DNA of 64,000 nt from Sporopachydermia quercuum. Lineage: Eukaryota. A model generated the notes under the pieces. It ran no database searches and was not told the DNA's origin. It was given only the letters and a program-made list of their open reading frames with translations. The stretch spans positions 496,001 through 560,000 of the forward strand of contig BCGN01000005.1 in the NCBI GenBank assembly GCA_001599295.1, given 5' to 3'. Position numbers and translations under genes: made by a program. Shown piece after piece: positions 2,156-59,800 of this stretch (positions are counted from its first letter, which is position 1; each line of letters begins with the position of its first letter).

Positions 2156-3379
2156 TCAATCATGTTCGTTATCCTCCATTTTCTTCTGGTGAACTGTTTT
2201 AAACACAATGTCGCTATTAATATCATCGTTATCAGATATTGAAATTTCGTTTTCTCTTTCAATATTAGTACGCCACTGTTGATTCTTTTCTATATCTTCT
2301 GAATTTGTTTCATTCAACTCTTGAGCTGGTTTATTCTTTTTACTTCTAAATCTTGGAAACAATAAAAATTGAGAGGAACCTTTGGAAGACAGGGTGCCCG
2401 GACTATTATCGTGTTCATAGTCAACACTCCAATTATCAGCAGAAGGTTTCTGAAATCCGTTAGATGTAGGATTCGAAGAGTTATTGCCTGAAGATGCCCA
2501 CATAGAAGCCAAAGGAAGTGATAATACTACGAAGAGTACTGAAATTGCAGTAAAACCTTCAGGACCTTGGTTTGGTAAACAATAATTAATCAGCACTAGA
2601 ACACCAGGAATAATCATTGTTTGAGTAGACATAATGAATAAAATATGGAAAGAGTCAAACTTTCTTAATCCTAAATATCTTCTTGATCTAATAGCCAAAA
2701 GAAGTTTAGTATTAAGAATTATTGACTGAAGTAGAATCGACACAGCGAATAGAATAATAGGTACTAGTCCAGCCCATGAAGGAATGATAGTACCCTGGTA
2801 TAGGGTGAGAATCTGAGAGATAGCAGCATATAAGTAGAAACCAATGACAATTGCTCCCATTAGTATACTAATTGCCTGAACAAAATAGCCAACTTTTAAA
2901 ACTTCTGGAGATTGAAAAATAACTCTCACTTGGAAAATCATTGATGCCTCAATAGAAGCAATGAGCAGAACTTGCATAACCGTAGTAACGCTAGTGGTAA
3001 CTAGATCACCCTCAGTTACATCATAAAAGAATCCAGTGAAATGATTACTAACACTTGAGAATGGACCAGTACAATAACTGATATATAATCCTGAATGGAT
3101 AATCATCAATATTAGAGATAATTGATTGAGAATAAAAGTTGGTGTGGTACGCCGTTTAATACATAGAATTAAAACAATACTTGTTAGACATCCCGCACCA
3201 ATTCTGACAGCCATGATAATTGCCAGTTGCACAGTTTTGATTGCAAACTTATCTATTTCACTCAACGGTACTTCATATTGAAACCCATCAACTGATGTTA
3301 TATTCACCAGTTGATCAGCTCCCGGATTGTAATTTTCGGGGAATCCAAGCGTAGGGTCACGGTTATCTATGGCATCCAT
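2156..3379 (-). CDS. STE2: Alpha-factor pheromone receptor (class D GPCR)
   Basis: Seven hydrophobic segments. Ste2 motifs TPTFILNQLSL, LIASIEASMIFQVRVIF, KLLLAIRSRRYLGLRKFDSFHILFIMSTQTMIIP and LSLPLASMWA. Confidence 0.97.
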   Translation of the reverse strand: MDAIDNRDPTLGFPENYNPGADQLVNITSVDGFQYEVPLSEIDKFAIKTVQLAIIMAVRIGAGCLTSIVLILCIKRRTTPTFILNQLSLILMIIHSGLYISYCTGPFSSVSNHFTGFFYDVTEGDLVTTSVTTVMQVLLIASIEASMIFQVRVIFQSPEVLKVGYFVQAISILMGAIVIGFYLYAAISQILTLYQGTIIPSWAGLVPIILFAVSILLQSIILNTKLLLAIRSRRYLGLRKFDSFHILFIMSTQTMIIPGVLVLINYCLPNQGPEGFTAISVLFVVLSLPLASMWASSGNNSSNPTSNGFQKPSADNWSVDYEHDNSPGTLSSKGSSQFLLFPRFRSKKNKPAQELNETNSEDIEKNQQWRTNIERENEISISDNDDINSDIVFKTVHQKKMEDNEHD

Positions 3380-3764: not shown

Positions 3765-3787
3765 CATTGTTTAGGCTTGATTAGGAA
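3765..3787 (-). promoter_or_regulatory. Putative a-specific-gene operator (a2 site CATTGTT + Mcm1 site) upstream of STE2
   Basis: CATTGTT-tagg-CTTGATTAGG-AA, ~390 bp upstream of the STE2 ATG. Same architecture as the sites upstream of the a-factor genes. A PRE TGAAACA lies at 3933-3939. Confidence 0.7.
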
Positions 3788-4890: not shown

Positions 4891-4973
4891 GATGCGGTGG
4901 CTCAATGGTAGAGCTTTCGACTCCAGGTTAAGTTGTCATCGAAGGGTTGCAGGTTCAATTCCTGTCCGTGTCA
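4891..4973 (+). tRNA. tRNA-Trp(CCA) with 11-nt intron (4927-4937)
   Basis: Acceptor stem GATGCGG/CCGTGTC, A-box TGGCTCAATGG, anticodon arm TTCGA-CT-CCA...TCGAA, T-loop GGTTCAATTCC, then a poly-T Pol III terminator. Closely resembles yeast tRNA-Trp. Confidence 0.95.
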
Positions 4974-9354: not shown

Positions 9355-10221
9355 TCATTTCTTTTGTTCACCTTCGGTTTCAGGTTCTGGTGGAGGTGTA
9401 GGTAGTTTGAAAGACTCAGGAGCATCATCTCTACCAGGACCAAGAGGTTCCCATGAAGTAGAGCCAGCTGCAAAAACTCTGTATGCTTGGGTTAATTCTA
9501 ATGGTTCATATACGATTCTCTTCTTTTCTTCGTCATATCTAACTTCAGTATAACCAGTACAAGGGAAATCCTTTCGAAGAGGATGACCTTCGAAACCGTA
9601 ATCTGTCATAATTCTTCTCAAATCAGGATGTCCCTCGAAGAAAACACCGAACATATCATAAGTTTCTCTCTCGTACCAATTGGCACCAAAAAACATATTT
9701 GCAAGAGATGGTACAGGACTGGTTTCACTAGCATACGTCTTAACTCTTACTCTGGCATTGTATCTCACAGACAAGAAGTTATACACAACTTCAAATCTAT
9801 TTTCTTTAGTGGGAAAGTCAACACCAGTAATGTCCATAACCGATTTGAATTGACAGGCAGTATGGTCTTTCAAAAATGTACATAGAGGTATAATACCATT
9901 TGGTCCAGTGTAAATACATAATTCATCTTTCCAAACGGAGAACTTTTGAACATACTTTGGTAGGCATGACATAATGTATTTACCAAATTTGTGTAATTCT
10001 TCGACATGCTCGATGAATTGATCAGCTGGGTTCACGATAGGTTCCTGAATTTCACCAACTTTTTTTCGTGGTAAAGTACTTAAATCTAATAGCTCTTCTT
10101 CTTTGACATTCTTAGTGCTGGAAAAAGATCTAACAACTTGTGCCAATGGTTTAGCTGATCTGTAGGCCAATGGTCTTTGGACATTTCTCATTCCACTCGT
10201 TCGTATTGTTCGGCCCAACAT
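9355..10221 (-). CDS. NDUFS3: Mitochondrial complex I 30 kDa subunit (NDUFS3/NUGM/NuoC)
   Basis: Arg/Ser-rich presequence; RFEVVYNFLS and ANWYERETYDMFGVFFEGHPDLRRIMTDYGFEGHPLRKDFP. Confidence 0.96.
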   Translation of the reverse strand: MLGRTIRTSGMRNVQRPLAYRSAKPLAQVVRSFSSTKNVKEEELLDLSTLPRKKVGEIQEPIVNPADQFIEHVEELHKFGKYIMSCLPKYVQKFSVWKDELCIYTGPNGIIPLCTFLKDHTACQFKSVMDITGVDFPTKENRFEVVYNFLSVRYNARVRVKTYASETSPVPSLANMFFGANWYERETYDMFGVFFEGHPDLRRIMTDYGFEGHPLRKDFPCTGYTEVRYDEEKKRIVYEPLELTQAYRVFAAGSTSWEPLGPGRDDAPESFKLPTPPPEPETEGEQKK

Positions 10222-21530: not shown

Positions 21531-21570
21531 TTTGAAAGTTGAATTACAGTCAATGCTAATAAATAATAGA

Positions 21571-21631
21571 ATAATAAACAAGAATAAACAAGAATAAACA
21601 AGAATAAACAAGAATAAACAAGAATAAACAA
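21571..21631. repeat. 10-bp tandem repeat (AGAATAAACA)x5 plus a partial copy just upstream of EXG1
   Basis: Perfect copies at 21581-21630. Confidence 0.9.
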
Positions 21632-24077
21632 CTGACGAAGCAAACGTAGTTCAAGTATTAGATAGCTTCGGTATAATAATGAACTTCACTATAAATAAAC
21701 TAACGAACGAATGCTATAGGAGGAGTTCAACTGACAATCCATAAACAGTTTATAATGAAAAGAATCAAAATAAATATAGGTAAATTAAATGAAAATCATT
21801 ATAGAAATTTATCTGATTTTCTAACATTTCGAAGTCTTTTTCAATTAGGAGAAAGGAAAGATCCACTAGAGAGAATAGTTTAATATATATGATTTCTGAA
21901 ACTTGATCCAAGTTGGTTTTTCAGTTTAAGTTTGAAGGGGATGGCATTTTTTTGTTACTTTGGAGAACTTAAAGTGATTTAAGTTCGTATTGATAAAAGG
22001 TTAAATTGAAAAATACCCCTTTGATGGGTTTGTTCTATTTTAATACTCTACTTTACTTTCGAGTGTCCGAATATCTTACCGTTGTCCTGACATGAAGAGA
22101 CACGCTGTACTGCATGAGTTGTAATGAAGTAGAAACAACAAACATGAATATCAGTTCGAACGACCAGGAAATAGTTTGATATGAAAGAGGACCACTTCAA
22201 GAACTGTAATTATATGAAGAGATGATCACGATATTGATTCGTGACTATATACTTTTTGACTTTTTGCTTTTTAGCTCCGACATATGAGAGCTTCCCCACA
22301 AATCTAAAGACCCATAACCCAACTTTCAAAAGAGTGTTATATTCAAATACCTTAAAAACTAGGTAATTTAACTGTGAGTTGAATAGGTTTTATAACCATG
22401 AGGAATGATATAACAATACTTGGTTTAGTATAAGAGTTACCCGGAAGTATGCTGCTATACGGAATAAAATAATAGTAGTGGGTTAGCTAAATCAGATCTG
22501 TCAATCATAATAAAGAATAGCTCGATAAATTCCTATGCAGAACAACAGCACTGAAAAATAAACAATAAAAATAGCTACAATAATCATAAGAATATGACAA
22601 TGAGTTTGATTGAGCTTTCCAATGGTTTAAAAAGGAAGTTCGTATTTCCGGCTTAATTGTCCCGCCTAATGAAATTACAATTTTTTCAGGAACGTAATAT
22701 AAATAGTTCTCATGTGTATTTTCTATACTGCAAGCATGCTTGAGAAGGATGGGACTAGACAGTTCTGTCGACAAAGGTTTACAGTGTGATTTCAGTCAGC
22801 TTTAAGGAACCGTTTACCTTCCGGACAGCAATGTATGGCTATTTTAATTTGGTACTAATCTGTTTTGGTGCCCACCAAGGTTAAAATTGAATATTATTAA
22901 CTCTCGGATTACGAAGGCAATAAAACAAATAGATTGTTTCATAGATAAACCGTAATAAAGTTGAAACGTAACAACGGTCGATGGAAACAAAGCGTACCTC
23001 CCAATTAATATTGTAATGCTAATTACAAGTAATCTGTAGCTCGTATGAAGCAGAGATTTAACCGTCAGATTGAGACTCATTCAGTATATTTTTGAAAAGT
23101 TGTTGGTATTATACATAGTGGAACAATATTATTAAGCAATCAGAATTTTATTCATGCTTTTCAACTTCAAGAATTTGAAGGCTGGTTGGTAATCTTGGAA
23201 AGCAGTAAAATATCACTAACTCCCAAGATTACCCAATTGTTGGACGAATAATTGGAAGCGTCCCGAAAGATGTGACTTAAATTGAGACGAAATCACATGG
23301 GCATGAACTGTTGATGAATAGCAATATTCCTGAGAAAGAAAAAACAAAGATCAAGCACTCAAATATAATGTGAAGATTTAAACAAACATTTGAGATATTT
23401 TGAGAGTATGTATCGATACCAAGAAATTACTCCCGTCTTAACGAACATAAAGAACAGTACCGTAAGAATATTGTTTTTGTCAGTCATACCTAAAACTTCA
23501 ATACAAATGTCCTCCGAGGCTTATCGTGTCCGCATGCATAAGCAACCATATACGGAAAACAATACCATAGAAAAATATAAGCAAGCTATGAGAAAAGCCA
23601 CTGATTTAATAACAGAGGAATGGTTCTAAATACATATGCTTCCAGAGAAATAAAAAAATAATTGATTGAATTGGAAGTTAAGAACTGAAAATACAGTCAG
23701 TTATATAATTTTGTTTTGCGGAGAGCTAATGGAAAACTAGGTAAGTTATTAATGAGTAAGTGAGCCGGGATTCGCAGTTAGTAGTTACATCCTGGTCTTT
23801 CCCAGATCATCAAATCTATGTAGTTAAGTATTTCTTTCTGAATCATTCATTAATCGTCAGTTTTTCGTTGAACCTCATCAAAATCACACTTTTTTTGATA
23901 TGTAAACAGAATAATCAGTCATCAATGTTTAACTTACTGGTCCCTGCGCCTTATATGTACCAACAACCAAATAATCATTCGAACCTGCAATAATCATAAA
24001 ATGTATTCTCATCGTTGATCAATTACACTACGAGCTCCGTTTCATTCAAGCATTCAAATCATATTCGGATCAACAAG

Positions 24078-24095
24078 ACGCGTTCAGGTTCGCGT
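24078..24095. promoter_or_regulatory. MCB-like cell-cycle elements in the EXG1-YOX1 divergent region
   Basis: ACGCGT at 24078-24083 and TCGCGT at 24090-24095; further CGCG near 25073 and 25968. Confidence 0.4.
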
Positions 24096-25415
24096 TTACA
24101 GTCTGTAATTAAAGTTTAAATTAAAGTTTGAATAAATGAAATATCAACAATGTTGTCTAATCATTTTACCAGATTGGGAACAAATGAAATTAACATGAGT
24201 AGGTAATCTCAATTGATCTCGACAATTGACAGAAGAGACTATATGGTATGGAAAACAAATCAAGTATTCAACATCTTAATTGTTTACCAAGGATTGGGGA
24301 CGTACAATTCCAAACTGCCTAAGCATCACATTCTTTGGTATCTGTTTTACGTTGATCTTTCACATATACATCCGAATGAATCTGCCCTAAGCTTAAACAT
24401 TGTAGAGAACTCTTCAAATTAGAAGGGTCCCTCCAACCCATCCCTTTTTTTCAATTTTTCAGTTGATAAAGAACTATGTTTTATATTCCGATCGCATAAA
24501 TGTTCCCTATTGATAGCAACACCATGTCATTTAGTCCCAGACTAGTAAAAGTCTTCTTTCCCAAATCTCATTCTTTGACTCATGTCTCTACCTCTTGAGC
24601 TTGGGTTGAGGAACAGAAAATTGGTAAAGTTTTGATCCACTGATTAAAGTTTGCTGCATTTGCTCTAGCAGCAAAAATCATTCATGCAAAATTCCAATAG
24701 AATCGTGACTGATGTCTCAATGTTTTAATCAACTGTTGATCATGGAGTAGGAAAAAAGCAAGAAAGAGTTAAGATATTTGATTGCTAATCGTTTAGATAC
24801 AAGGAATCTAGTGCAAAAATTGTATTTGTATGTTGAAGAGTCAATTAATATTGAGCTTTCACGGTCCATGATTGGGGGGCAGCATATAAACTCTCTCTGA
24901 AAATACCCTAGAAGACCATTTCTTTGATAACAGGGCTAAAGCTATTGCTGAATTGTACTATTTCCTCTTCCAAACAAATAAAGTTGTTGCTACAATTATG
25001 GTAAAAACAGCTATAGCAAAGGTCTAACGTTACGGAATAATAGACATCATAGTATGTTGTTTGCATATTCTTCGCGTATCGACAATTGAAAAGCCAAACC
25101 TCCAATTACCTTTCTTAATTTGGAAAATATTCTTCGCACTATTTGTAGGGTATAAACTTTATTTTATTATTATTGATCCCTGACTTTCTTGAGAAATAAA
25201 TGAATCTAGAATGATGAGAGGATGTAAGGAAACTCCTATTGCTTGAGAAGAAGTGTGTTAATGTATTAAAAGATAGATGACTATTTGTTTCCTAAATAGA
25301 TTTCGCTTTTCGAGCAAAACCAGTCGAATTATTTCAACGCTCAATTGCATCCATCTTTTTCACACTCGATGTTCTCAACACTAAGTTTGGTTTCTATTCA
25401 ACAAATAATACCACT

Positions 25416-25431
25416 TAATTACCCAAAAGGG
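25416..25431 (+). promoter_or_regulatory. Homeodomain site TAATTA abutting an Mcm1/ECB-like site upstream of YOX1
   Basis: TAATTA-CCCAAAAGGG, ~600 bp upstream of the ATG. Confidence 0.45.
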
Positions 25432-26025
25432 ACCAATGTTTTCTGAAAGCAGCGCAAGCTAGTTTAGCTTTTAGTGGGAATTTCTTTAAACTTTATTTAG
25501 CGAGAGGAAATAGCGACTAGTAGTAAAACTTTAAAGGACCTATCAATTCTACGTGAAATGTATAATAGATCTGAACACCATCAACACAACAACAGAAGAT
25601 AGAAGGACGTGCATGTTGTCGAAAACGGTAAATTGATATAAAAAATAAGCACCAAAGTTTAGTAATTTGCCTTAAAGAAATCTAATTGATTCAATTTGGT
25701 GATTTTCACTCTAAATTGATTAAGCTTTACTACTTAGTCTGGTCATATATATACTGTTCAACTGCCCTTCTTATTTCGACCTCAATCTATTTCGTTTTGA
25801 CATCACTCATATCTTTATGATGTTGCCTGTTTCACTTTCATCAAGAAATAGTCAAACCATTTTCTTTCGCTAATTTTTCTTTCGAATATTGAACGTGGGA
25901 TTATTTGATGTGATTCGATCATTCAAATCTCATTCGCTCATTTAAGAAACAGAATCCTTTTTCACGACGCGCCTGTTTCTCGACTAAGGCGTTAAGTCAA
26001 CCAGAAAATAAAAACATAAATCGAA

Positions 26026-27354
26026 ATGTCTTTGCCAGCTTTAAGACCAACTTCATCACCAAGCAGACACGCTTTAAGAACACATAGATCATTAGCATCG
26101 CAAATTCCTTTGTCAAAGAGCGCGCAATTCGGTGGAATCTTGCCTCCTATTTCTTCACTTTTGAATTCATTACCTGAACCAATTCACTCATCTCCGACGG
26201 AAACACCTTTGAAACAGCCAATCTCTGTATCGACCGCTACATCATCATCCTTATCAACCAATACACCTTCATTTCATAGAAATGCTACATACCCTAGTTT
26301 AAACAAATTTTCACTATCAATTAAACTATCAAATACTTCATCATTGGTNCCTAGTGGCCCTTTATCGGCTCCTCTGCCGAAAATCGACGGTACATCAGTA
26401 GCAACTTCTACCGCCATTATCAATTCGACTTCTACTTCAGTCTTATCAACAACTCCAACCTCTGAACCAACTAACATAGAGGACTCTATTCCATCAAGTG
26501 TTACCTCATCTTTGTTTTCTGCTTCTACCAGAAAAAGTAGTGCTATCAACTCTTCGCCTCCTTCATCGCCTTCACCACCTTCGCCTTTACCGTCGACTAA
26601 ATCATTTGCATTTATCTCTCATTCATTGTCGACGTTTCCTTCACAAGCCCCGGAAATCGATGATGCTCAATTAGCAAGAAGGAAAAGACGACGAACATCT
26701 CCAAATGAATTGGGAATTCTTCAAAATGAATTCAACTTGAATCCCCGTCCTTCGAAATCAAAACGTATTGAGATTGCTAATAAAGTGTCAATGACAGAAA
26801 AAGCAGTACAGGTTTGGTTTCAAAATAGACGACAATCTCTAAGACGACATTCTTGTTCAGATGACTCTTTGTCTAACATCTCACCTGAACGTCTTACTTT
26901 TATTGAATCTGCTTTTACATCTAAGATCAATCAAGAAACTCCAACAAAGAGATCTAGTGAATTTCTCAATTTAAATGGGCATCCAGGCATGAATGATAAT
27001 ATTGGCACTAATACGAGTAGTATCAATGAATCTACTTCTTTGTCAGTTAATGAAAATCGTGCTGCCACCACCACTTCTCTTACAAAATATGATTCTGACT
27101 CAACTGATGTTGAAATCTCACCTTCACCCAAGAATCATGGTCTGAAGCTGATGATGTCTATTGATGGTAAGGCAATTGTTGCACCTCCATTAAGAAGATT
27201 AAATGATAATGATTTGAACAAGCCAAGAAATATTCACTTTGGTAGAAATAGCAGCAATACCAATTCTTTTAATCACAAGAAGCACACCAAAACTGGTTCC
27301 GTTACTGCCTTAGAATGTGTGGAAAATTTATTATCATTGAGGTCAGCAAAATGA
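26026..27354 (+). CDS. YOX1: Homeodomain transcriptional repressor, Yox1/Yhp1 family
   Basis: [33 protein letters not shown]...[13 protein letters not shown] and C-terminal [11 protein letters not shown]. Confidence 0.9.
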
Positions 27355-27618: not shown

Positions 27619-27738
27619 TTAAGCGATAACACATTGGGGAACATAGAATGGTCCAATCATGATATTATCTTTGGGAGCTTCATTGTCCTTAGGGGCAGCA
27701 GAGGAAGCAGCAGTAGAAGTGGTGAAAGAAGATTGCAT
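27619..27738 (-). CDS. MFA1: a-factor mating pheromone precursor, copy 1 (39 aa): MQSSFTTSTAASSAAPKDNEAPKDN-IMIGPFYVPQ-CVIA
   Basis: Hand-translated; too short for the ORF track. C-terminal CAAX CVIA, KDN before a hydrophobic mature peptide, S/T/A-rich pro-region, AAAATG start context and a near-identical paralog at 30005. Confidence 0.93.
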   Translation of the reverse strand: MQSSFTTSTAASSAAPKDNEAPKDNIMIGPFYVPQCVIA

Positions 27739-28083
27739 TTTGACTGATTTAAGAATCTGATTGGTATTTCAATAAACGAATTTGTTTAGCTTGTGTATTG
27801 ATTTGTTCTGTTGTTGATGCTTAGTTATTTTGGTTGATTGTTTGCTTGAAAATAGTGTTAGAAATGATTTTGGTAGTCGTTTAAAGAAGGAAGGACTTAC
27901 TGGTTTATATAAATTTATAACAAGGTGAAAATCTCAAGTTTGAAAAAGCAAAACATTATTTTTTTAGATTCTGAAACATTAAAAGAATAAAAGTTTTCAA
28001 TTTAGGATACAGCAGAGGCTTATCTGCTATTGCTGATGAGAATGGATCAGAGCATCAGAACTTATTAATGATTTTCATATGCC

Positions 28084-28106
28084 CATTGTGTAATACCGAT
28101 TAGGAA
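28084..28106 (-). promoter_or_regulatory. Putative a2-Mcm1 operator upstream of a-factor copy 1
   Basis: CATTGTG-taat-ACCGATTAGG-AA, ~350 bp upstream. PREs TGAAACA at 27972-27978 and TGAAACG at 28237-28243. Confidence 0.7.
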
Positions 28107-28750
28107 TGTGAAAGTTTTAAAGTTGAGAGATAATTTTTAAGTTGTAGTGTTTAATTTTGATTTCATTCTTAGTTAGCTATCTAGTTCTTAGAACACTTGA
28201 TTTATCACCTTTTCATTAAGATTGAAATTAAAGATTTGAAACGTTGCACTCATCTTATATTGAGATCACTTAATTTAGGACCAAAACATTTNGTTCTTTC
28301 TGTATCTCACTATAACTTATAAGACTACAATAATGAAGACAGACGAGTTGTCGAACTATGAATCTAGCATCTGATCTCATAATTGAATGCCCTGTTATGA
28401 GACACACTATTTTATTTTTNCTACTACTAGTACCTCAACTTGCAACCTGGTATGAGACACAATTTATTCACCGTTTTCCAGACCACCCAAACACCCATTG
28501 TTTTTCATCATCCAAGCAGATTTTTCAGTTCATGTTGGTTGATTACCACTATGTACTTTCTATGTATCAGCATCTTTTGTGTTATCGTTCTACAACCTAT
28601 AGTACATTTGCTGTTTGCCAATTCCGTCTACTAGTTACTTCGTAATATATAGTTAGGAGGTAGTCTTAACTAGTTTCAACCATCGTTTGTATTTGGGTGT
28701 TTGTATTTGGGTTTTTGTTGAAACCAAGAAATAGAAGAAACTAGTTCAAG

Positions 28751-29584
28751 ATGTTTCGACAAGTTTTCAGCAAATCAACATCTTGTGTGTCAAGAGTGCT
28801 ATCTAGATCATTAGCTACAGTTGCTGAAGCCTCATCTGTTACTGAAGTTCTTCCCAATGCTAAAGGTATGTTTTTAGTTTTGTGAGCACTTAACTGAATC
28901 ATAGGTATTCTAACATTCTTTTCAGATGCTCCTAGATATGTGTTAACTCAAGTACGGGAATTTCCTTCATTAGAACCTCAAGCCTTTCAACCAGTTGCAG
29001 CAGATGTGCTACACTTACCTCTTCGTCGAGATGTTTTATGGAAAGCAGCTGTTCATGAAGCTGATTGTGATCGTGTAGGATCTTCTAATCCTCCAGGTAG
29101 AAGTGATATGGGTTACAGTAGAAAGAAGCTAAGGCCTCAAAAAGGCTCTGGTAGAGCTCGTATGGGTGATAGAGGATCTCCGACAAGACACGATGGTGGT
29201 AGAGCATTAGCTAGAACAGCTCCCAACGACTATACCACTAAACTNCCAAATAAAGTATACAACTTGGCATTAAGGACAGCTCTAAGTTATCATTACCGGA
29301 GAAACACATTATTTGTCATTGGAAATGAAACAGGCGCTGAATTGCCAACGTCAGATGAGGTTGCAGGCGAATACTTTTTAGATTTCCACAAACTAAGGAA
29401 ACTGAATGTGTTATTCATTGTTGATACAGAAAGAATCAACTTGCATAAAGCAACTTTGGGTTCAAAGACTAAAGTTGATATCATTCAAAAAGAAGAAGTA
29501 GAGGTCCGGGATATATTAAGAGCAAATAGAGTCTTTGTCGAATTATCTACTTTGGAATGGTTTGGAGAAACCCGGGAGGCATGA
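28751..29584 (+). CDS. YML6: Mitochondrial ribosomal protein uL4m; exon 1 28751-28865, intron 28866-28925, exon 2 28926-29584; 257 aa
   Basis: [15 protein letters not shown] and [35 protein letters not shown] motifs. GTATGT donor, TTCTAAC branch and CAG acceptor join an in-frame mitochondrial presequence ([24 protein letters not shown]). Confidence 0.93.
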
Positions 29585-30004
29585 ACATTTCGGATTCATT
29601 CGTGTATATATACTTAATAAACCAAACTGTATGAACTAATTGGTGTTTATTCTCTGTTTGTAAGTTTTATTCATTTATTATATGACCTGACAACGTTTAG
29701 GATGGACTATGAAAGTCATAGTGCAAAAACTGATGAGAGCTTGCAGTATTCATTTGTATCATTTGAAAGTTTGACTACTATAATTACGGCAGATTTTCGT
29801 ATCAAATTTGATTATCTTTGAATAAACAGTGAAAAAAGAAAACTATCAAGTAGAAGAAAAGGGTTGTGTTGCCATGTTGAACAATATGCTGATGCACAGC
29901 TTCGAAATGAAATGTTGAATTCTGTTGTTTGTAAATGCCACAATTTGATAATGAAATTTTGCAATTTAGACCAAACCAAGAACAGAAATAAGCATAAGCA
30001 ATAA

Positions 30005-30124
30005 TTAAGCAATGACACATTGAGGAACATAGAATGATCCAATCATGATATTATCTTTGGGGGCTTCATTGTCCTTAGGGGCAGCAGAGGAAGCAGCCGT
30101 AGAAGTGGTGAAAGAAGGTTGCAT
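30005..30124 (-). CDS. MFA2: a-factor mating pheromone precursor, copy 2 (39 aa): MQPSFTTSTAASSAAPKDNEAPKDN-IMIGSFYVPQ-CVIA
   Basis: Hand-translated. 113/120 nt identical to copy 1 (5 synonymous, 2 nonsynonymous differences). MQP start and CVIA end as in S. cerevisiae a-factor. PREs at 30329-30335 and 30386-30392. Confidence 0.93.
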   Translation of the reverse strand: MQPSFTTSTAASSAAPKDNEAPKDNIMIGSFYVPQCVIA

Positions 30125-30779
30125 TTTGACTGATTTAGATTTTGTTCGTGATTTATTATTGTTTGTATAAACGTGAGTAAGCTGTAACTGTTTAGATATT
30201 CTATGGTAGATTGTTGGATGATAATAGCATAAAGGTTCTGAATCTGATCAGAAAATGTTTGATGCTGGAGAGATTGTGTTCTCCTTATATATTCTCATCT
30301 GAAGTCTGAGTTCCCTGTAAACCAACTCTGAAACATAGAAATTATCTAGTTCAATGATAGTAGTTTATCAATTTATTTCTTAGTTTGTTTCAAATACTAA
30401 AACATTTTGATAGATGAGCTTTTGTCAATCTTTATCATCATTTGATATTCTATTTTTTTGATAGGGAAGAAATAATTAGTGCAACTTAAGGTTTAGCTAA
30501 GTTCTATAATAAATTTTGTTTTAAGAGAAAAGAAACAAACGCGAACAGTTCATTCCACAGGGCAAATTATATATAGTATAGTATCTGGTGATTGAGTTGA
30601 GCTAAAACAAAAAAAGGCCTATTTAGTTTAATAGTTGCAACTACAGAAGAGCAGTGAGAAGGCAATATTATCTCAAGCTAAGAGTACATAAACAGAGAAC
30701 TTAATGCCCACTTCCTCATTGCCTAGTTTGAGATTAAGTTCTCCCTACTTTTTCAATTACCCAATATAGAATTATAGTT

Positions 30780-30811
30780 CGTTGTGCTCTCCGCATTAGG
30801 ATTGAACAATG
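30780..30811. promoter_or_regulatory. Symmetric a2-Mcm1-a2-like operator upstream of a-factor copy 2
   Basis: CGTTGTG-ctct-CCGCATTAGG-attg-AACAATG; the right arm is the reverse complement of CATTGTT at the same 4-nt spacing. Confidence 0.6.
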
Positions 30812-31159
30812 GGCTTCTATAACACGTTAATTTCCGTATCAAAGCATTAGTTTCGAGACTACCATAAAGAAATTAATAAAGGTATTAGAAAAAAGAATGA
30901 AAGAATAGCACTTTACAGTGGTTGCATGTTGATTGGTTGATTGAAATCCAAGTCCTTGTGGAACTTAACGGTGCCAGATTGATGGCTTGGAAACATGTTT
31001 AGTGTTTGAATCAGAGGAAACGGCACGAATTTCCTTTTCTATTTTATAATAAAAATTCCAGTATTGGAAGCTGCACAATTCGCTTCACAATAGAGTAGAA
31101 GAACTAGTTTTTGAAATTTTCGGTGGCATACCTGAATAATCATGAACATATTATTTAGG

Positions 31160-31184
31160 AGTAGTAGTAGTAGTAGTAGTAGTA
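31160..31184. repeat. (AGT)n microsatellite
   Basis: agtagtagtagtagtagtagtagta. Confidence 0.8.
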
Positions 31185-32010
31185 AATAAGAAACTCAACG
31201 ACAAATTGACAATGAGGTTCTCAGAAGCAGCTGCTTAAATTTGAAACTCTACTCCCACCGGTAATACACTACAGCCTGTACAAAGATTATAAATGACATA
31301 TAGTGCTACATTAAAAGAGATAAAATCACCTGAAGTATACTAAGTAGAAAACCAAAAACCCAACCAATCAATAACCACCAAGATTCATCATCTCATATAA
31401 TAGCGGAAAAGCACAGTACTATATTCAACGTTTTCTGCACATTGTTTTACGAAATAATTATTGCTTACTAAAGAAACAAAAAAAAAACACTCTGATTACT
31501 GTCCAGAGATACTTGTCAGTAGTCACCATTCCTCAACAAAGAAGAGCGTCTCATGTACTACTCAAATATAAGACTATAGCAGTAGCAGATCTAGAAAGCT
31601 CACTTGAACAAGTAATCATATTTTTAACTCACAATGTGTAACTATCCCCACATAAAGCTAATATTGTAGATATTTATAATTCTTTCACTCAATTGTGATA
31701 TCTTTTCAAATCTCAAAAAATTTGATATGATACCAGCAATTATATTTAATAATTCGCTCTACAGCTTAAAGTGAATCGAAGGAGTAAATCCGGATAAAAC
31801 GTTGTTTCTAACAGTAACCTTGATTGAAATCAAACCTTACCATAGTTGACAAAAGGAAAACCCCAGTTAGATAAATGGCAGTATGAGAAAATGAAAGAGA
31901 GACAAGATGTATAAGAAAACAGTAATCATTGATACATGAATTAGAGCCACCATTCACTGGAACATCAGCTACTCTATTGAGAGAGAAAGAATTCATCAAG
32001 AAGTAGATAA

Positions 32011-32101
32011 TTAGCAAATGACGCATTGAGGAACATAAATTAGTTCAATTATGATTTATCCCAGAGGAAGCAGCAGTAGAAGTGGCGAAAGCAGGTTTCA
32101 T
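32011..32101 (-). pseudogene. Degenerate third a-factor copy (internal deletion plus frameshift)
   Basis: The ATG frame reads MKPAFATSTAASSGINHN*. A different frame gives IIIELIYVPQCVIC*. ATG-to-stop distance is 91 nt, and the APKDNEAPK segment is missing. Confidence 0.8.
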
Positions 32102-45733: not shown

Positions 45734-48316
45734 TTATTCTAAAGAGCTGAATTCTGAGTCAATCTCTTCAACCTCTTGGTACTGTTTTCTGGTATTTCTG
45801 GTACTACAATTACAAGTAATGCGTTAGTATTTGTTGAATAAGGGTTGATAGCCTTTTAGCATACAACATATTTGAATTCAATATAATCTTGAAAAATTCA
45901 GTGTACCATAGCATATTAGAGGATTCCTGTTGATACTTGTGGATAGTACTAGCTTCGTACACCGTTGATTCAATTGCCACCTTTTGATTCCTGTTTCTCC
46001 TTTCATTGTTGTTCTAAAAATAAACTTTTCTGTAAGAATCCTTCATTGAAAACCTTTCATTTCATTCATTCCTTCATTCGATGCTTCATTCTCCCTGTTG
46101 AAGTACTATATTCAGCTGTTCCAATTCAATGATATTTCCTGCAGTTGACAGTCCAACAACAGCAATGAAAATCAATCCATAATATCAGCAAGTATCATAT
46201 AATAAAGACATAGAATCAAGTAGCTATTCTCATTTTCAATACTTACGGTCGTTTTCTTATTTTTTCAGTTTCTTCTTCTTCTTCTTCTATTTGGATTATT
46301 TCATCATCAACAAAATTATCATCACCAAAATCATCATCATCTATGGCAAAAGATTGAGAATTCGAATCTGATTCAGAACTTGACACAACTTCTCTTGATT
46401 TTCTCTTGTTATTCTTATTTGTTTTCGTTGACTTTACTGGTTTGGCAGTTGTTGATCTCGTTGAGCTTTTTGGTTTAACAATTTTCTTCTCATTTGAATT
46501 TGTTTTCCTTGTTTTTACTGCTGAGGTTGTTGTAGTTAGAGTTGAAGTTGAAGTTGAAATGTTATGCTTCTGTTTGGGTTTCTGATACTTTTGTTAGTAA
46601 AACGTATAAACTAGTAAAAGGGTGACCAACAAAGCAATAGCACTAATAAACAGAAATGTGACTCATCAAACTGTTTTCCCTCTCTTTTGATCATTAATTC
46701 TATTCTTCCTTCCTACTTTTCTCTCTTTTTCTTCGAACAATACTTACATCAATAAATGAGTCCTTATCTATATCATAATTAGCCATTAATCCATCTAACT
46801 GTTCCTTCAGTGATGTTTCTACGAACTCTTTTAATGCATTTTTATCATCCTTATCAACAAATCTTCTAACCGCTTCATTCATTCCATTTTCTGGTAATAA
46901 TTCCAAATTGTCCTGGCCTAAAAACGTTTGCACTAATTCTTGGATTTTAACGTTTTCTACTCCGTCATCTTTTCCGGACTTGTCTGAACCTCCATTATTG
47001 CTTCCATTGTTCTTGCCGTTTCTATTCCCGCTATCATTTCCGCTATTCTGGTTATTCTTCCCTAGGGCCGAACCCAAATTCCGAGACCTCCGTTTATGGA
47101 AATTGACAACCCCATTAACATTAGCAACAATTCCCACAAATCTATTGGAAAATCGACGAGGATTCTCAACTTCATAACCACCAGAATAATCAACATTCAA
47201 TCTAATCAACGGCAGCGGAATCTCGTTGTTTTCTCTATCAAAATCTTCACCTTGTCTTGATAGCCACTGGCTTTTGGCGTCTTGTACTAAAGAATTAACA
47301 AGATTTATCAAATATCTCGTAACCAGATTCTTGCTTTTCGGACCAGGAGTTAAACCGGAATTACTTAAATCAATATTCCGTAAGATAAAGGGTCTAATCG
47401 TCGTTAATGGTATTGCTTGTAACGAATAATTACGTTTATGAATATTAATAATGAAGACATGTTTCTCTGCAACCTCAGACTCTGATAAAGAGGTTGCAAC
47501 TGATGAACCAGGCTGTAGAACTTCAAATTGGCTTATTGGGTTGTATTTCGGTACCGGTATACATTCATGTTCATGGCCCCATACTACTAGATCTAATAGG
47601 TTCGGCAGGAAATACTCAGGGATGTAATTAGTCGCACTGTGGGCTATATGATTCTGATGAATAGCCAAAATATTGAACCATTCGCCCTGAGCAATATTTG
47701 GTTGTAGAAACTTCACTTTCTCATCGCGGAAGGTCCTATGGAGCCTTTCATCTCTAATGCTTGGTAAGCCATAGAGAGCTAGTTTCGTTACCCCTTTTTG
47801 AAATAATAAAGGAACCACTGTTATATCGTCATTCTGAGAGATTTGACCGAAATGATTGATCAATCCTGTGGTTGATAAGACATCCATTGGTGCCAATAGT
47901 CCTTCACCTGCTGCATCATCATGATTGCCAGAGATTGAAAAGAATGGTAAAGAAACGTTAATATTTGGATCTTCATAGTTGACATAGTTGAACAGAGGAT
48001 CATTAATAACTTCGCTAGTATCACCAATAACTTCCAATTCGCATGGTTTGTCTCCAAGACAATACTGTCGTAATAATCTTATAACATGATACATCGATTT
48101 CTTTGATGGTTTATTGATATGGAATAGATCACCAGCTTGAAGGATCATATCAACGTCGTTATCCTTTGCAATGGCTAAGATTTCCTGAAACGTTTTCCAT
48201 GCGTCATCTCCAAGAATTGCGTCACTTTCGCCATATCCGATATGATTATCCGTGGTGATTAGGATGGAGATAGTGTCAGGGCCTTTTGGGGTCGATTGTA
48301 CTCTAAGCACATCCAT
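45734..48316 (-). CDS. MRE11: Mre11 nuclease; predicted exons 46748-48316, 46247-46581 and 45734-45803 (657 aa)
   Basis: Phosphoesterase motifs TDNHIGY, GDLFH, ISGNHDD, HQNH, WGHEHEC, QPGSSVATSL and ENPRRFSNRF. Intron 1 (46582-46747): GTAAGT...TACTAAC...CAG. Intron 2 (45804-46246): GTAAGT...TACTAAC...TAG. Both joins keep the frame; exon 3 is less certain. Confidence 0.93.
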
Positions 48317-49238
48317 CAAGAAATGGGGTAGAATTATGCAAATATTGGGTTTTGGATTGGATTTAAAAGGATGCTAATGTTTGAAATGGCAGTGTCAAGG
48401 ATGAAACTTTTCCCGGATCCCGGAATTGATTCCGAAGCGGATTCAGAACGGGAAGTTATCTTGTGATTAATCCAAGGCGATATACCGAGATACTGAGTTG
48501 GATATTCGATTATGTAATTCAAAATTGAGATGTGTAGTCTTCAGAGTTGCCCCTCAAAGCCTTTGCAAGGTTTTTTTTTTATTCTGAAGACTGAAGAGTT
48601 AAGTAACGTGTCAACTGCATAAATACTTTGAGGTGAAATAAGCGCTTATTATATTCTAAATACGAAGGTATGTTCTTAAAGGTATGACAACTTGTATAAT
48701 GTTGTTCAGTACATAAAAAATAGGTGGAATATTAGTACTTTCCATAGATCATTCAATGACCATTTATCTCCAATCTTTATAGTTGTCCCTAAAATATCAC
48801 ATGACAATTACAAGCCTTTTATGATTACATTATCTGATTCAATTGAGTGACTTTCGGGACGGAAGATAAACAAACTCCACAAAGGCACTTGTTTCTCTTC
48901 CGACAGCCAATTTAGAGCCAACTTTTTCGGCTCAATTTCCCAATTCGAGACATCGCAATTAATAAATTGCATTCTATTGTATAAGCCTCTATTAGAATTT
49001 CAACAACTGTTTCTTACAATAGAATCACAGTTCATATTTCAACGCACATACATCATATAGATGCGTTCATCGAGAAACACATAACCAACGGAACTAGTGC
49101 GGAATAGAGCGGCACAACAGTTGGGAAGTCTGCCTAAAACGGCAGTATTGAACCATACTAATACGGTATACCTTCCGAGAAACCTTATTTCTCACTTTAT
49201 TCCAGCCATTGTCATCTAATCATCGTCTTGAAGCCNCA

Positions 49239-54782
<5,544 letters not shown>

Positions 54783-56870
54783 AGAGGAGAAGTTAGAAGT
54801 TCGGAAATGATATTAGAGAATTACGGAGACTATTATNAGTTTTTAATATTTCGGAAAGTATAATGAAATGTCGGAAATTATGTGCTTACCTCTAGTTTAT
54901 CAAAATGTATGACAGCTTCTTTCAACAGAACTCACACAATGCTGTTTTATTAAACAGACGAACCAATAAATCGTTATTCCCTTCTATTTGCACCAAAATA
55001 AGCTGCCTGAAAGGGACAAAGATTTTTAATTCCCATCCATTCGTCATTTGTATGTTGTAATTTACAGTTCTTCAGCCATTGACAGCAATTCATTCGTTCA
55101 TTCGATTGTCGGCTCAGTTTTTTACAACAATTTGCAACTATTCACAGTACACAATTTTTCCATTACAATAGGGAAGTTTCTTCCAAAAGAATTTGATTGG
55201 ATAGAGGCTCTTTTGGCCCCATTTTTTTCCATTTGGTCACCGTACTTTTTCTATAAATACAATCCATCTGCTGCTGATAGAACAATAATGCACTGCAAAT
55301 TAGGTATTTCTAGGTATTTCTTCCTGGGTGCGTATTGAGGTTTTATTCTTCTTTCTAGAAAAAAAGAAGAGTGATTTAGCGACCAGTGAATAAAAATTCA
55401 TTAGCTTGTCCTGCTAATCAAAATAAAGAAAACCAGTTGTGAGAGAAAAACTCCGTACAAATGAGGAAGTCCAAACATACAATCTATGCGATTCACTTGA
55501 CTTTCAGTAATTGGCACCCTTTTACTATAAAAATTTCATCTCCAATAAACGATAGCTTGTTTTTACCTCAATTCGCTCTTAACTTTTTTTTTTTCATTCA
55601 TTATAATCTTAATTGATTTGTTGTTTGTTATCCTTTCTTGCTAATCGCCTTTTCATGGATCACTTCACGTCTCCATCTGTTGAGTCCCCCAAGGGACAGT
55701 ATGATAAGACGATAATGCTATTCAATAGTGGGCAATGGAACCGAACTGAGTTGAACAAAAATAAGGAAATTTGCTGTCGTTTCGAATTATTTATAGTTGC
55801 GTGCTTTGATGGAATTTTTTTTTTTGATTTGTCGTTAAGATTGATTGAATTGCTCGAGCATTGCGAATAAGCAAGCAGATGAATTGCTTCTTCTGTCGGT
55901 AAGAAAGAACAATAAAGATATCCGGTTCCTGAAGAGTTAGGGTTGTATTGTCCGGGTCAAACTGAGGACGGAACTACGGTAAGTAAGAAAGTGAGGCACG
56001 ATCACACTGGCCGCAGGGATGAAAAAGTAATAGTGGGATGAATTATTATGTATTGTATCTCATGAATTAAGGGATTTGCAATTTTTAGGAAGAATCATCT
56101 TCGGGATTGGCTAGTTTTTATCCAGAACTCGTATGAAATCAGTTGCTCATGTTTGTAGGTCAGAGGAGGATCTCTCCACCNTAGCTCAATAGGGAAAGCA
56201 TATGTCGTCGTACAATCAATGTAAATAGTAGGATATTCAAAGGATTTATATAAACATTCTAATAATGTACGGTATCAAATACTTAACAATAATCAGTCAT
56301 TCTACTCTTTCATATACCTCTTAGAAATCTTACCATATCCTCATCCCAATATTCCTACCTTTCCCCGATCCCTCTCTTTCCCGGATCGCTTATTTTATAC
56401 CACACCCATAAATTGTCACGTGTCCTGTTCCATGTGGCAATGACATTCTCTTCATCCNCAAACCCACTATGACATTTCATCTGCTCCATACATTCTTCAT
56501 TTTGTCACACTTGTCACACTTGTCCCCCTTGTCGCATTCAGCCCTCATAAGTCTTTTTGTGATCGTAAAACCCCCAACCTCCTACCAATTGCTTTACTCC
56601 ATTTTTCTTATTGACAGTAAATCATTACTATTTATCATACAAACCACCGCATTTATCAACCAATCTATAATAATTCTGTCAATTCTTTGTCAGGACAGAA
56701 CCCTGATAATTGTGATGAGATTGATTCTTTGATTCATCTCAATTGTGGCATTTGTCCTGTTTTTTTTTAGGATAGACCTAAACCTAAGGATTAACCATAG
56801 TATAAACAACAATCAAGGATAATAAATAGCATATCAAACTATTTTAGCATATTGAGAATAAACAAAGATA

Positions 56871-59800
56871 ATGTCAGACTTCCCGTCACATACACCTTTC
56901 AAGGTGAGATCCATTTACGAATACACGTCGGATCATCCGGATGATTTGCCCTTCGGAGTTGGTCAACAGATTACTGTTGACGTTATTGAAGATGATGAAT
57001 GGTTTACCGGTAGTTACACTGATAAAGATGGTGTAATACAAACGGGGATGTTTCCTAAGAATTTTGTTGAGTACGAGAAGCCGAAAGTGCCTGTGACAAG
57101 ACCAGGCCACGGTCGGAATGCGACTGAGACTGGACCAGAGCGGACCACGGAACCCGTTGCACCCGCTGCACCCGCGGCTGTTGCTAAGCCACAGTCTGAG
57201 AATGACGGATGGGGCGATGGTGAAGACATTGAAGATAGTGAAAATGAGGAAGATTATCAGCCACCAAAGCCTGTAATAGCTCCTGAGGTGGTTGCCCCAA
57301 AGCTGGAACCGGGGGCCGAACCGGACCCGGAAAATGTCTATGGATCGGAAGCTGACGCCGCAGCTAATCCTAAACCAAAACCTAAACCTAAACCGAGCTT
57401 GCCTTCACCATTCCCCAAATCGGATACAGGTCTATCCGAAAAGAAACAGACTCCGACAAAAGAGCATAAAGATCCAGGTTTGGGATCTCCGCCGACTCCA
57501 AAGGGTAGAAATAACGCCTTTCTTAATCGAATTGCCGCTTTTAACACTTCCGACGATCCTGCTCCGTTACCTACATTTTCTCCTAAACCTTCTTCTCATA
57601 TTAAAAAGCCATTTGTTGCTCCGGCTCCTTCTGCGTATGTGCCTCCTCCTATTGCAAGTATTTCTCATACTGTTCATGTTGATCGCCGAGCTACCAGTCC
57701 CGATGCACGTGATCTTTCGGGATCAAATGCCGACTCTAAGCCGGATCATGAGTCACAATACTCCAATAGCTTGGTGGAGGAAGACGAAGGGCCCAAAATG
57801 AGTTTGAAAGAACGAATTGCATTGTTACAAAAAAAACAAATGGAGGAACAAGCCAAAGCGGAAGCCGCTCTGCGGAAGAAAAAAGAGAAAAAGAAGAAAT
57901 TAGCCGAGGGGAAAGAGAACAGAGACACAAATGAGGCAGCCCACGGAATAGAGGACTTAACTTTAGCCGATTCTGCTTCTTCCGCCCCATCGGGTAGATC
58001 AGGTAGTATTGCTTCCGCTAGTAGTATGGGAACAGATACTGATTCAGTATCTTTAGTGCCACCAATTCCAAATCTGGCGGAAATAGACTCTATTATTGAA
58101 AGCGACGATTTTGACGACGCTACAGAACAAGAATTACAAACCGGTACCGAAACTGACAGGGTGGCACAGCAGGACACTCAATTTCAGCCGGGAGGTGAAT
58201 TAAAGGTGACTCAACCGGAAGAAAACGACTCCAATGCCGAAAATAACTCGGGTGACGGATCAGAGCGTACTGATCCCGACGAAGACTCCGACGAAGACGA
58301 AATAGATGCTGAGGAACGGAGAAAAATGGACCTTCGGGCCAGAATGGCCAAACTTTCCGGTGGAATGGGAATGCCAGGAATGGGATTACCCGGAATGATG
58401 ATGCCTGGCTTTGCGTCTGTTCCATCATCCGTTACGAAGAAAAAGAGTAGTAAGACCCGGAAACAGTCAGAACAATCTTCTGAAGAGCAAGCAGAAGAGT
58501 TCAGGGAAGCCCCGAGAATGGTCCCAATGGTACCAATTGTTCCCGTCGGTCTACCGGGGATGAATCCTATTGCTCCGCCCGTTGCACCTCCTGTTGCCAT
58601 TGATTCCGATGCTGAATCCGATGCTGAATCCGATGCCGACGCGGAAGCCGACGCCGAATCCGATATTGAGGCGAAAGAAGACATAGAAGTAGAAGCACCT
58701 ACGGACGAGATAAACGTGGATTCAACTAGCGAAATAAATGTTGCACCAGAGTTGGAGCTCATATCTAACAATGAGACGGAATTGGAAGTAATTCATCCTA
58801 AAAAGGCAGGCGAGTTCCTAAGTTATGATCCCAGTAACCAAAACGGGAAAGGGAGCCGAAAAGGGAAAAGAAATCCTGAGGATACCGAAATAGGCGAAGA
58901 AGAAGACGAAACGGGAGGGGAAGAAGACGAAAGTAGTGATAGAAAAGAGGAAATCTCCCATATTGCTACTGCTCCTCCTGTTCCGCCTACCCCTGCTGTG
59001 CCACCTGTTCCTCCCATTCCTTCTCACACAGCCACAATTTCTACCCCTCCGTCCCAGCCTCATCAAACACATAGAGCCCCTCCCCCGCCTCCTCCAGCCG
59101 CTGCTCCTCTTCCCCCTGTTCCCGCAATCCCAGCCGTTTCAGCTGTTCGAACTGCACCACCGGTTCCGATCCCAATGCCAAAACCAATAGCTGGCTCCGA
59201 GGAAACCATAGAAATAGAAGCAGAAGCCGAGTTTTCGGATGAAATCACTGGTTACGAAGCGGATGAGGATACCGATATAAACGCCCAACAATCGGATGAC
59301 CCCGCAAGTTACCCCACCAGCACAGTAAAAAGCACCCCAACCCGCTCGGAGATCCCGATCCCGAGACTTCCCAGCCGATCCTCAACACTTCCGCCGCCGA
59401 TTCCNAACGTTGGGGCTATTCCTCTTCCCCCTGTTTCCCCTCCAGATATTCCAAATGCCGCGCCGCCTGTTCCTCATGCAATTAGGCGTGCCGCCACTGA
59501 AGAGGGGTTCGGATCGGCTACTACTACTGCACCCCTATTTCCCCCGCCACCCCCTCCTCCAGGAGCTGCGCCACCAATTCCAATAGCTAGCAAGCCACCT
59601 CCTGGCCCGCCAGTTTCAACGGCAATTTCTTCTACTGAGCCACCGGTTACTCCCCATGCTGTTCCTATTACATCTCCCACTGCTTCAGCTCCTCCAGCTC
59701 CAACTACTGTGTCACCAGTTGCCCAACATTCCCCATCAATGCCCATCAGATCGTCCCGAGAACTGTCCCGCTCTAAGACCATCATTTCCGAAACCGCGGG

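Follow-up and report, generated by a model that had tools for sequence, protein, structure and literature searches.

Two intact, probable a-factor-type pheromone precursor genes and a degenerate third copy clustered within 4.5 kb of a budding yeast genome

Two short minus-strand open reading frames (ORFs), here called copies A and B, very probably are functional paralogous genes for precursors of the mating pheromone a-factor, and a third, copy C, a dead duplicate of them, judging from sequence. They lie in a stretch of 64,000 nucleotides of Sporopachydermia quercuum contig BCGN01000005.1 (assembly GCA_001599295.1, positions 496,001 to 560,000 of the forward strand), which was analyzed as a whole and is called the window; all coordinates are those of the window. 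The reading rests on the coding sequences of A and B and the pattern of their divergence, on their match to the a-factor family in Pfam, and on promoter motifs that they have in common with the alpha-factor receptor gene STE2.

Two intact ORFs and a degenerate copy

The elements of the cluster are as follows.

27619..27738, minus strand: MFA copy A, 39-codon ATG-to-stop ORF MQSSFTTSTAASSAAPKDNEAPKDNIMIGPFYVPQCVIA, predicted mature core IMIGPFYVPQC, then VIA
27739..27751, minus strand: 13-nt leader TAAATCAGTCAAA, the A-rich context before the ATG of copy A, identical in B
30005..30124, minus strand: MFA copy B, 39-codon ATG-to-stop ORF MQPSFTTSTAASSAAPKDNEAPKDNIMIGSFYVPQCVIA, predicted mature core IMIGSFYVPQC, then VIA
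30125..30137, minus strand: 13-nt leader TAAATCAGTCAAA before the ATG of copy B, identical to that of A
32011..32101, minus strand: MFA copy C, a putative pseudogene with deletions of 28 nt and 1 nt, the Met27 codon lost and a stop after 18 codons

All three copies lie on the same strand and span 4483 bp from A to C. When copy B was compared with the whole window by blastn and tblastn, A, B and C were the only copies found. These results agree with a preliminary description of the DNA, which had reported two intact 39-codon minus-strand ORFs ending in CVIA and a degenerate third copy in the same orientation, all within 4.5 kb. ORF lists made with the default floor of 60 amino acids (aa) omit ORFs of 39 aa.

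In both A and B, CVIA forms a C-terminal CAAX box right before the stop codon, and the motif KDN followed by Ile stands 11 residues before the Cys. Genes for a-factor are recognized by an Asn, 5 to 20 residues before the Cys, that has an aromatic or uncharged residue after it, and this arrangement is present in A and B; they are also recognized as short single-exon ORFs of fewer than 100 aa (known ones have about 35 to 42), and A and B have 39 codons each. The predicted mature parts of A and B are identical at 10 of 11 residues. KDN occurs twice in each precursor, within APKDNEAPKDN (residues 17 to 19 and 23 to 25). Neither ORF holds an N letter or a CTG codon, and since CTG is absent the two peptides are independent of how the host reads that codon.

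Compared with copy B, copy C has lost 28 nt, which takes out the AAPKDNEAPK part, and 1 nt besides, and has ATA in place of ATG at the Met27 position. It retains 13 N-terminal codons before the original frame 0 ends after 18 codons; the tail, IYVPQCVIC before a stop, is in another frame.

Contigs of two DNA data sets (X1 and X3) match the window across all three copies, and they break inside both intact ORFs, which a short exact repeat would lead one to expect. Contig depth is 180 and 50 in a 35-letter piece common to A and B and falls to about 100 and 34 beside it, a weak hint at two such copies, contig depth being no copy number and the runs being perhaps the source of the window itself.

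Divergence of A and B

Copies A and B are identical at 113 of 120 coding bases (94%). Five of the seven differences are synonymous, as the preliminary description had counted, and two are non-synonymous (S3P and P30S). The likeness begins 13 nt before the ATG and stops at the stop codon, giving a repeat of 133 nt, and the flanks beyond it are 25 to 40% identical (ungapped), which is the random level. Synonymous and non-synonymous divergence come to 0.183 (pS) and 0.023 (pN), a ratio of 0.13. At least five synonymous changes arose in 2.8% of 100,000 random placements that kept the observed 6:1 transition bias (P = 0.028), and the sense frame alone among the six shows a synonymous bias.

A lone CAAX ORF means little, because the window holds 412 ATG-initiated ORFs of 20 to 100 aa, of which 24 have Cys at position -4 and 5 end in C-aliphatic-aliphatic-X. 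Among them, A and B are the sole pair related to each other; as a pair they are, on these counts, beyond chance.

Family identity

PF17317, MFA1_2 ("Mating hormone A-factor 1&2"), a model built on Saccharomycetaceae, was the single Pfam match for each of the two ORFs. Copy B aligned with profile positions 4 to 34 of 34 (24.3 bits, E 2.4e-5) and copy A with positions 5 to 34 of 34 (21.5 bits, E 1.9e-4). As a control, the 22 other short ORFs of the window with Cys at -4 were searched, and none matched PF17317 even at E<=10.

The MFA1 precursor of Saccharomyces cerevisiae has been described as 36 residues long with the modified Cys at C33, followed by VIA; its N-terminal extension is cut at T7/A8 and then at N21/Y22, Axl1 cutting after KDN, and the mature a-factor is the dodecapeptide YIIKGVFWDPAC. 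Aligned by eye from the Cys, the predicted 11-mer has 5 of 11 residues in common with residues 2 to 12 of that peptide (I, G, F, P and C). Every sequence-level expectation of a-factor identity that could be tested was borne out: CVIA, the KDN site, constraint between the paralogues, a near-threshold PF17317 match, and promoter motifs. The identification made in the preliminary description is upheld to that extent.

In the ESM Atlas the best match scored 0.83, in a cluster in which 22% of the members carry PF08015 ("Pheromone"); this lies below the significance level and is a lead only. A metagenome scan for VPQCVIA before a stop returned 14 loci, 11 of them with a G+C content of 0.49 to 0.65 and none with an a-factor-like frame, and these were read as chance matches.

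Promoter motifs in common with STE2

Motifs upstream of A and B, and the STE2 gene with its own motif, are listed here; positions with a minus sign are relative to the gene named.

27905..27919, minus strand: TATA elements TATAAAT and TATATAA, at -181 and -173 of copy A
27970..27979, minus strand: 10-mer ATGTTTCAGA, at -241 of copy A; its complement contains the Ste12 pheromone-response core TGAAACA
28084..28104, minus strand: composite CCTAATCGGT + ATTAC + ACAATG, at -366 to -346 of copy A
30285..30291, minus strand: TATA element TATATAA, at -167 of copy B
30327..30336, minus strand: 10-mer ATGTTTCAGA, at -212 of copy B; its complement contains TGAAACA
30386..30392, minus strand: a further TGAAACA, at -268 of copy B, in the opposite orientation to the first one of B
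30791..30811, plus strand: composite CCGCATTAGG + ATTGA + ACAATG, at -687 to -667 of copy B, in the opposite orientation to the gene
2156-3379, minus strand: STE2 alpha-factor receptor gene, intact (Pfam STE2, E 2.7e-78), 24 kb from the a-factor genes
3765..3785, minus strand: composite CCTAATCAAG + CCTAA + ACAATG, at -406 to -386 of STE2

The 10-mer ATGTTTCAGA is found just twice in the 64 kb, once before A and once before B. The composite, which joins a Mcm1-like box of 10 nt to the HMG-type core ACAATG across a 5-nt spacer, occurs three times, upstream of A, B and STE2 only. Two strict patterns of the composite were each expected 0.02 times; the first had 2 matches and the second 1, counts that were reached in 0 of 100 and 2 of 100 shuffles, respectively. 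With a loose pattern, none of 200 simulated windows reached 3. The STE2 promoter also carries GTTTCAGA at -354. Shared 9-mers and 10-mers between the A and B promoters showed no excess over control regions; the specific motifs alone stand out. In the 600 nt upstream of copy C there was no TATA box, no Ste12-type motif (PRE) and no composite.

On this sequence evidence the composite ties the short ORFs A and B to STE2, a known a-cell-specific gene. S. cerevisiae uses the alpha2-Mcm1 operator, where the A and B promoters carry a composite of an HMG-type and a Mcm1-type element. For yeasts beyond the S. cerevisiae clade, published work describes composite sites of 24 to 27 bp through which the HMG protein Mata2 and Mcm1 jointly activate a-specific genes. 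The composites of A, B and STE2 appear to fit sites of this Mata2/Mcm1 type.

Proposed maturation pathway

The sequence itself shows the ORFs, the constraint on them, the motifs and the likeness to the family; the biochemical steps, the cell-type specificity and the exact N-terminus given here are inferred by analogy with S. cerevisiae. Copies A and B would be transcribed in a-type cells through the Mata2/Mcm1-type composite, and pheromone signaling through the Ste12 sites would boost their expression. The 39-residue precursor would be farnesylated on Cys36 of the CVIA box, VIA would be removed, and the new C-terminal Cys would be carboxymethylated. The N-terminal extension would be removed in two steps, the last cut falling after Asn25 (KDN/I). 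The products would be the 11-residue lipopeptides IMIGPFYVPQC and IMIGSFYVPQC, which a Ste6-type ABC transporter would export and Ste3 on the opposite mating type would sense.

The mature pheromone is likely to be this 11-mer. We prefer it because Ile follows the second KDN and Glu the first, and because its length is near that of the S. cerevisiae peptide.

Weight of the evidence and alternative readings

Several points weigh against the reading of A and B as functional a-factor genes, or against parts of it. Both PF17317 scores lie under the curated gathering cut-off of 25 bits, and homology of A and B to the a-factor family is therefore claimed as likely and not as formal Pfam membership. 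No relative of the precursor was found in the protein or metagenome searches: with copy B as query, phmmer gave no match at E<=0.001 among 1.84 billion representatives, a word-indexed search of 5.8 billion proteins with copy B plus one in-frame upstream codon gave no candidate, and a metagenome scan for DNA encoding FYVPQCVIA before a stop gave no locus. The promoter patterns were defined after the sites had been seen, with the sequences of the Mcm1 box and the HMG core taken from general background. Purifying selection, which the preliminary description had read from the seven differences, keeps the support of the synonymous bias, but the test rests on only those seven. Moreover, pS lies far below the saturated divergence of the flanks, so gene conversion confined to the sole homologous stretch may contribute to the likeness of A and B and may itself keep the copies alike. 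Finally, the two occurrences of KDN make the mature N-terminus ambiguous.

This last point leads to the alternative with the most weight, that A and B are real a-factor genes whose mature form is not the 11-mer given in the preliminary description. A cut after the first KDN would yield the 17-mers EAPKDNIMIG(P/S)FYVPQC, and some other boundary could be used as well. The a-factors of Komagataella phaffii have been predicted as 17-mers after EDN or ADN, and a pipeline applied to 332 genomes accepts 5 to 20 residues. However, cleavage is described as following an Asn that precedes an aromatic or uncharged residue; the first KDN precedes Glu and the second Ile, placing a suitable KDN/I site 11 residues before the Cys. 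Counted by eye from the Cys, the 11-mer also has five positions in common with the 12-mer of S. cerevisiae, and the two are close in length. We regard a longer or otherwise different mature peptide as unlikely, while giving it a real share of the probability. That A and B are instead intact but unused relics in a non-mating lineage or strain, which owe their likeness to recent duplication or to gene conversion and not to selection, would suit the fact that one of three copies is already dead, as well as a pS of just 0.18 between saturated flanks, which fits conversion. Against this stand the start, stop, CAAX box, KDN site, TATA element and shared motifs, all kept in both copies while the surroundings diverged, together with the synonymous bias (P = 0.028) and an intact STE2 with the same composite motif in the window. 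We consider it improbable that the genes are relics.

Two further readings would remove the pheromone altogether, and to both we give very little credence. CAAX boxes occur on many non-pheromone proteins, and with Pfam membership below threshold A and B could be short prenylated peptides with some other role; but the sole family match is to the a-factor family over nearly the full profile length, and mating is indicated by the KDN site, by the hydrophobic core and by promoter motifs that STE2 carries as well. We know of no other class of CAAX peptides of 35 to 40 residues in budding yeasts. Slighter still is the possibility that A and B are a non-coding repeat with one frame open by chance. 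In its favor are the small size of the repeat (133 nt) and the abundance of short ORFs in the window, yet the boundaries of the repeat coincide with the ORF, the synonymous bias appears in the sense frame alone, the full frame and CAAX box are kept in two independent copies, and the PF17317 match is specific (0 of 22 controls).

Genomic surroundings

Copies A and B lie in intergenic DNA without conflict with the adjoining genes.

26026-27354, plus strand: gene for a 442-aa Ser/Thr-rich homeodomain protein, adjoining copy A
28751-29584, plus strand: gene for a mitochondrial-type ribosomal protein L4, between A and B (exon 1, 28751-28865; exon 2, 28926-29584)
4891-4973, plus strand: tRNA-Trp (CCA), 83 nt (ARAGORN, Rfam), in the STE2 upstream region

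The L4 gene has a 60-nt intron at 28866-28925, read from the sequence as GTATGT...TTCTAAC...CAG. Copy B lies 420 nt beyond the L4 stop, and copy C another 1.9 kb along, ahead of an inositol-phosphatase-like gene; in the 1.9-kb spacer between B and C a trinucleotide, ACT as read on the gene strand, is repeated about 9.7 times at 31156-31184. The homeodomain gene may encode a Yox1-like regulator, to judge from the gene order with the neighboring L4 gene in S. cerevisiae. Ahead of the homeodomain gene, 4.5 kb (21531-26025) are free of ORFs of at least 150 aa and of Pfam matches. With a homeodomain gene beside the cluster and STE2 nearby, the idea of a MAT locus was considered; it was dropped, no HMG or alpha-box gene having been seen. 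The scan behind this covered 62 of the 67 listed open frames (the remaining five overlie copy B and the flank 3' of it), and none of these 62 further frames of at least 60 aa outside the large ORFs had a Pfam match at E<=0.01. Apart from the tRNA-Trp gene, ARAGORN and Rfam found no RNA gene in the window.

Elsewhere in the window, the G+C content is 41 to 47% at 48001-60000 against about 34% in the remainder. Genes of this high-G+C stretch include those for a GCN2-like kinase (49239-54782) and an AIM3/BBC1-like SH3 protein (56871-60638), the latter with several imperfect coding repeats at 58362-59401. A perfect tandem 10-mer, AATAAACAAG, is present in 5.9 copies at 21573-21631, just upstream of the start codon of a GH5 glucanase-like gene. 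Thirty single N letters are scattered over the window, several of them within ORFs, where they give X in the translations.

Host lineage

The lineage was approached through other genes of the window, among them one for a subunit of respiratory complex I.

9355-10221, minus strand: respiratory complex I 30-kDa subunit gene (E 2.6e-47)

Saccharomycetaceae and their closest sister family are not known to have complex I. The presence of this gene therefore suggests that the host keeps complex I, which would exclude both families. Six of the 10 CTG codons of Mre11 and STE2 fall at conserved Leu or hydrophobic columns, so the standard code applies; the lineage of Saccharomycopsis fibuligera, by contrast, is reported to read CUG differently. 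None of five window proteins was present in the protein collections by exact look-up. No close relative emerged from the STE2 and Mre11 searches: the best identities were 42 to 45% for STE2, with Wickerhamomyces ciferrii as the best-scoring named match (44%), and 58% for Mre11. In quick trees of STE2 and of Mre11, each of a single gene and probably subject to long-branch effects, the query sat on a long branch with no supported sister. It fell outside the Saccharomycetaceae and CUG-Ser1 sequences, and also outside the Wickerhamomyces group (STE2 tree only) and Pichiaceae (Mre11 tree only). On these sequences the host lineage is left unplaced within the budding yeasts.

Comparison with known systems and significance

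The closest parallel is with MFA1 and MFA2 of S. cerevisiae, which like A and B are two paralogues whose precursors are short (36 and 38 aa; A and B have 39), with a Cys-VIA end, a final cut after KDN and mature peptides one residue apart. They differ from A and B in having a mature peptide of 12 residues rather than the predicted 11 and in that the KDN motif is duplicated here; moreover, the present host has a gene for a complex I subunit, and the two single-gene trees put it outside the Saccharomycetaceae sequences.

Among the other systems, Pichia kudriavzevii has an MFa gene with a dead MFa copy upstream, as in this cluster, but its precursor has 41 residues and ends in CTIA, and there is one intact copy where there are two here. 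In S. fibuligera, MFA1 and MFA2 stand in tandem on one chromosome with mature peptides one residue apart, like A and B. The MFA1 and MFA2 genes of K. phaffii encode 40-residue CAAX precursors and likewise came to light only when short ORFs were searched for deliberately, the cut being predicted from Asn; unlike A and B they sit on separate chromosomes, share 63% identity, are predicted to give 17-mers and were validated by deletion and expression. The preprint of Srikant, Gaudet and Murray uses the same defining criteria in a pipeline of successive filters, each of which the A/B pair comes through; it reports candidates in 238 of 332 Saccharomycotina genomes and treats the S. cerevisiae-Kluyveromyces lactis divergence as the point beyond which homology between pheromones can no longer be detected. 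More widely, duplication and mobility are the norm for a-factor genes: across 23 Saccharomycetaceae species they are described at 19 locations, a single genome carrying as many as five copies, and Candida tropicalis has up to 12 predicted copies. Duplicated, clustered and pseudogenized a-factor genes are thus already documented. The predicted peptide strings were absent from the searchable literature texts (main text; supplements with pheromone tables lie outside such a search), and a search for "VPQC" with "pheromone" returned one unrelated paper.

The locus is a solid annotation that leaves current understanding unchanged. Annotation pipelines drop a-factor genes because these are about 120 bp long, and a targeted search is therefore needed in each lineage. 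We offer only tentatively, and with more doubt than confidence, the view that a long-branched host with CTG read as Leu and with complex I, outside the sampled Saccharomycetaceae, Wickerhamomyces, CUG-Ser1 and Pichiaceae, keeps an a-factor still recognizable by Pfam, with CVIA, KDN and five mature positions retained. If that placement holds, sequence homology of a-factor would reach well past the S. cerevisiae-K. lactis horizon. The locus would also be a compact example of an ancestral Mata2/Mcm1-type a-specific site common to pheromone and receptor genes, and an added data point on the pace at which a-factor genes are duplicated and die and on the regulation of a-specific genes outside the S. 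cerevisiae clade. The two predicted lipopeptides would enable pheromone synthesis, mating-type assays, tests of pairing with Ste3 and controlled crosses in a poorly studied lineage.

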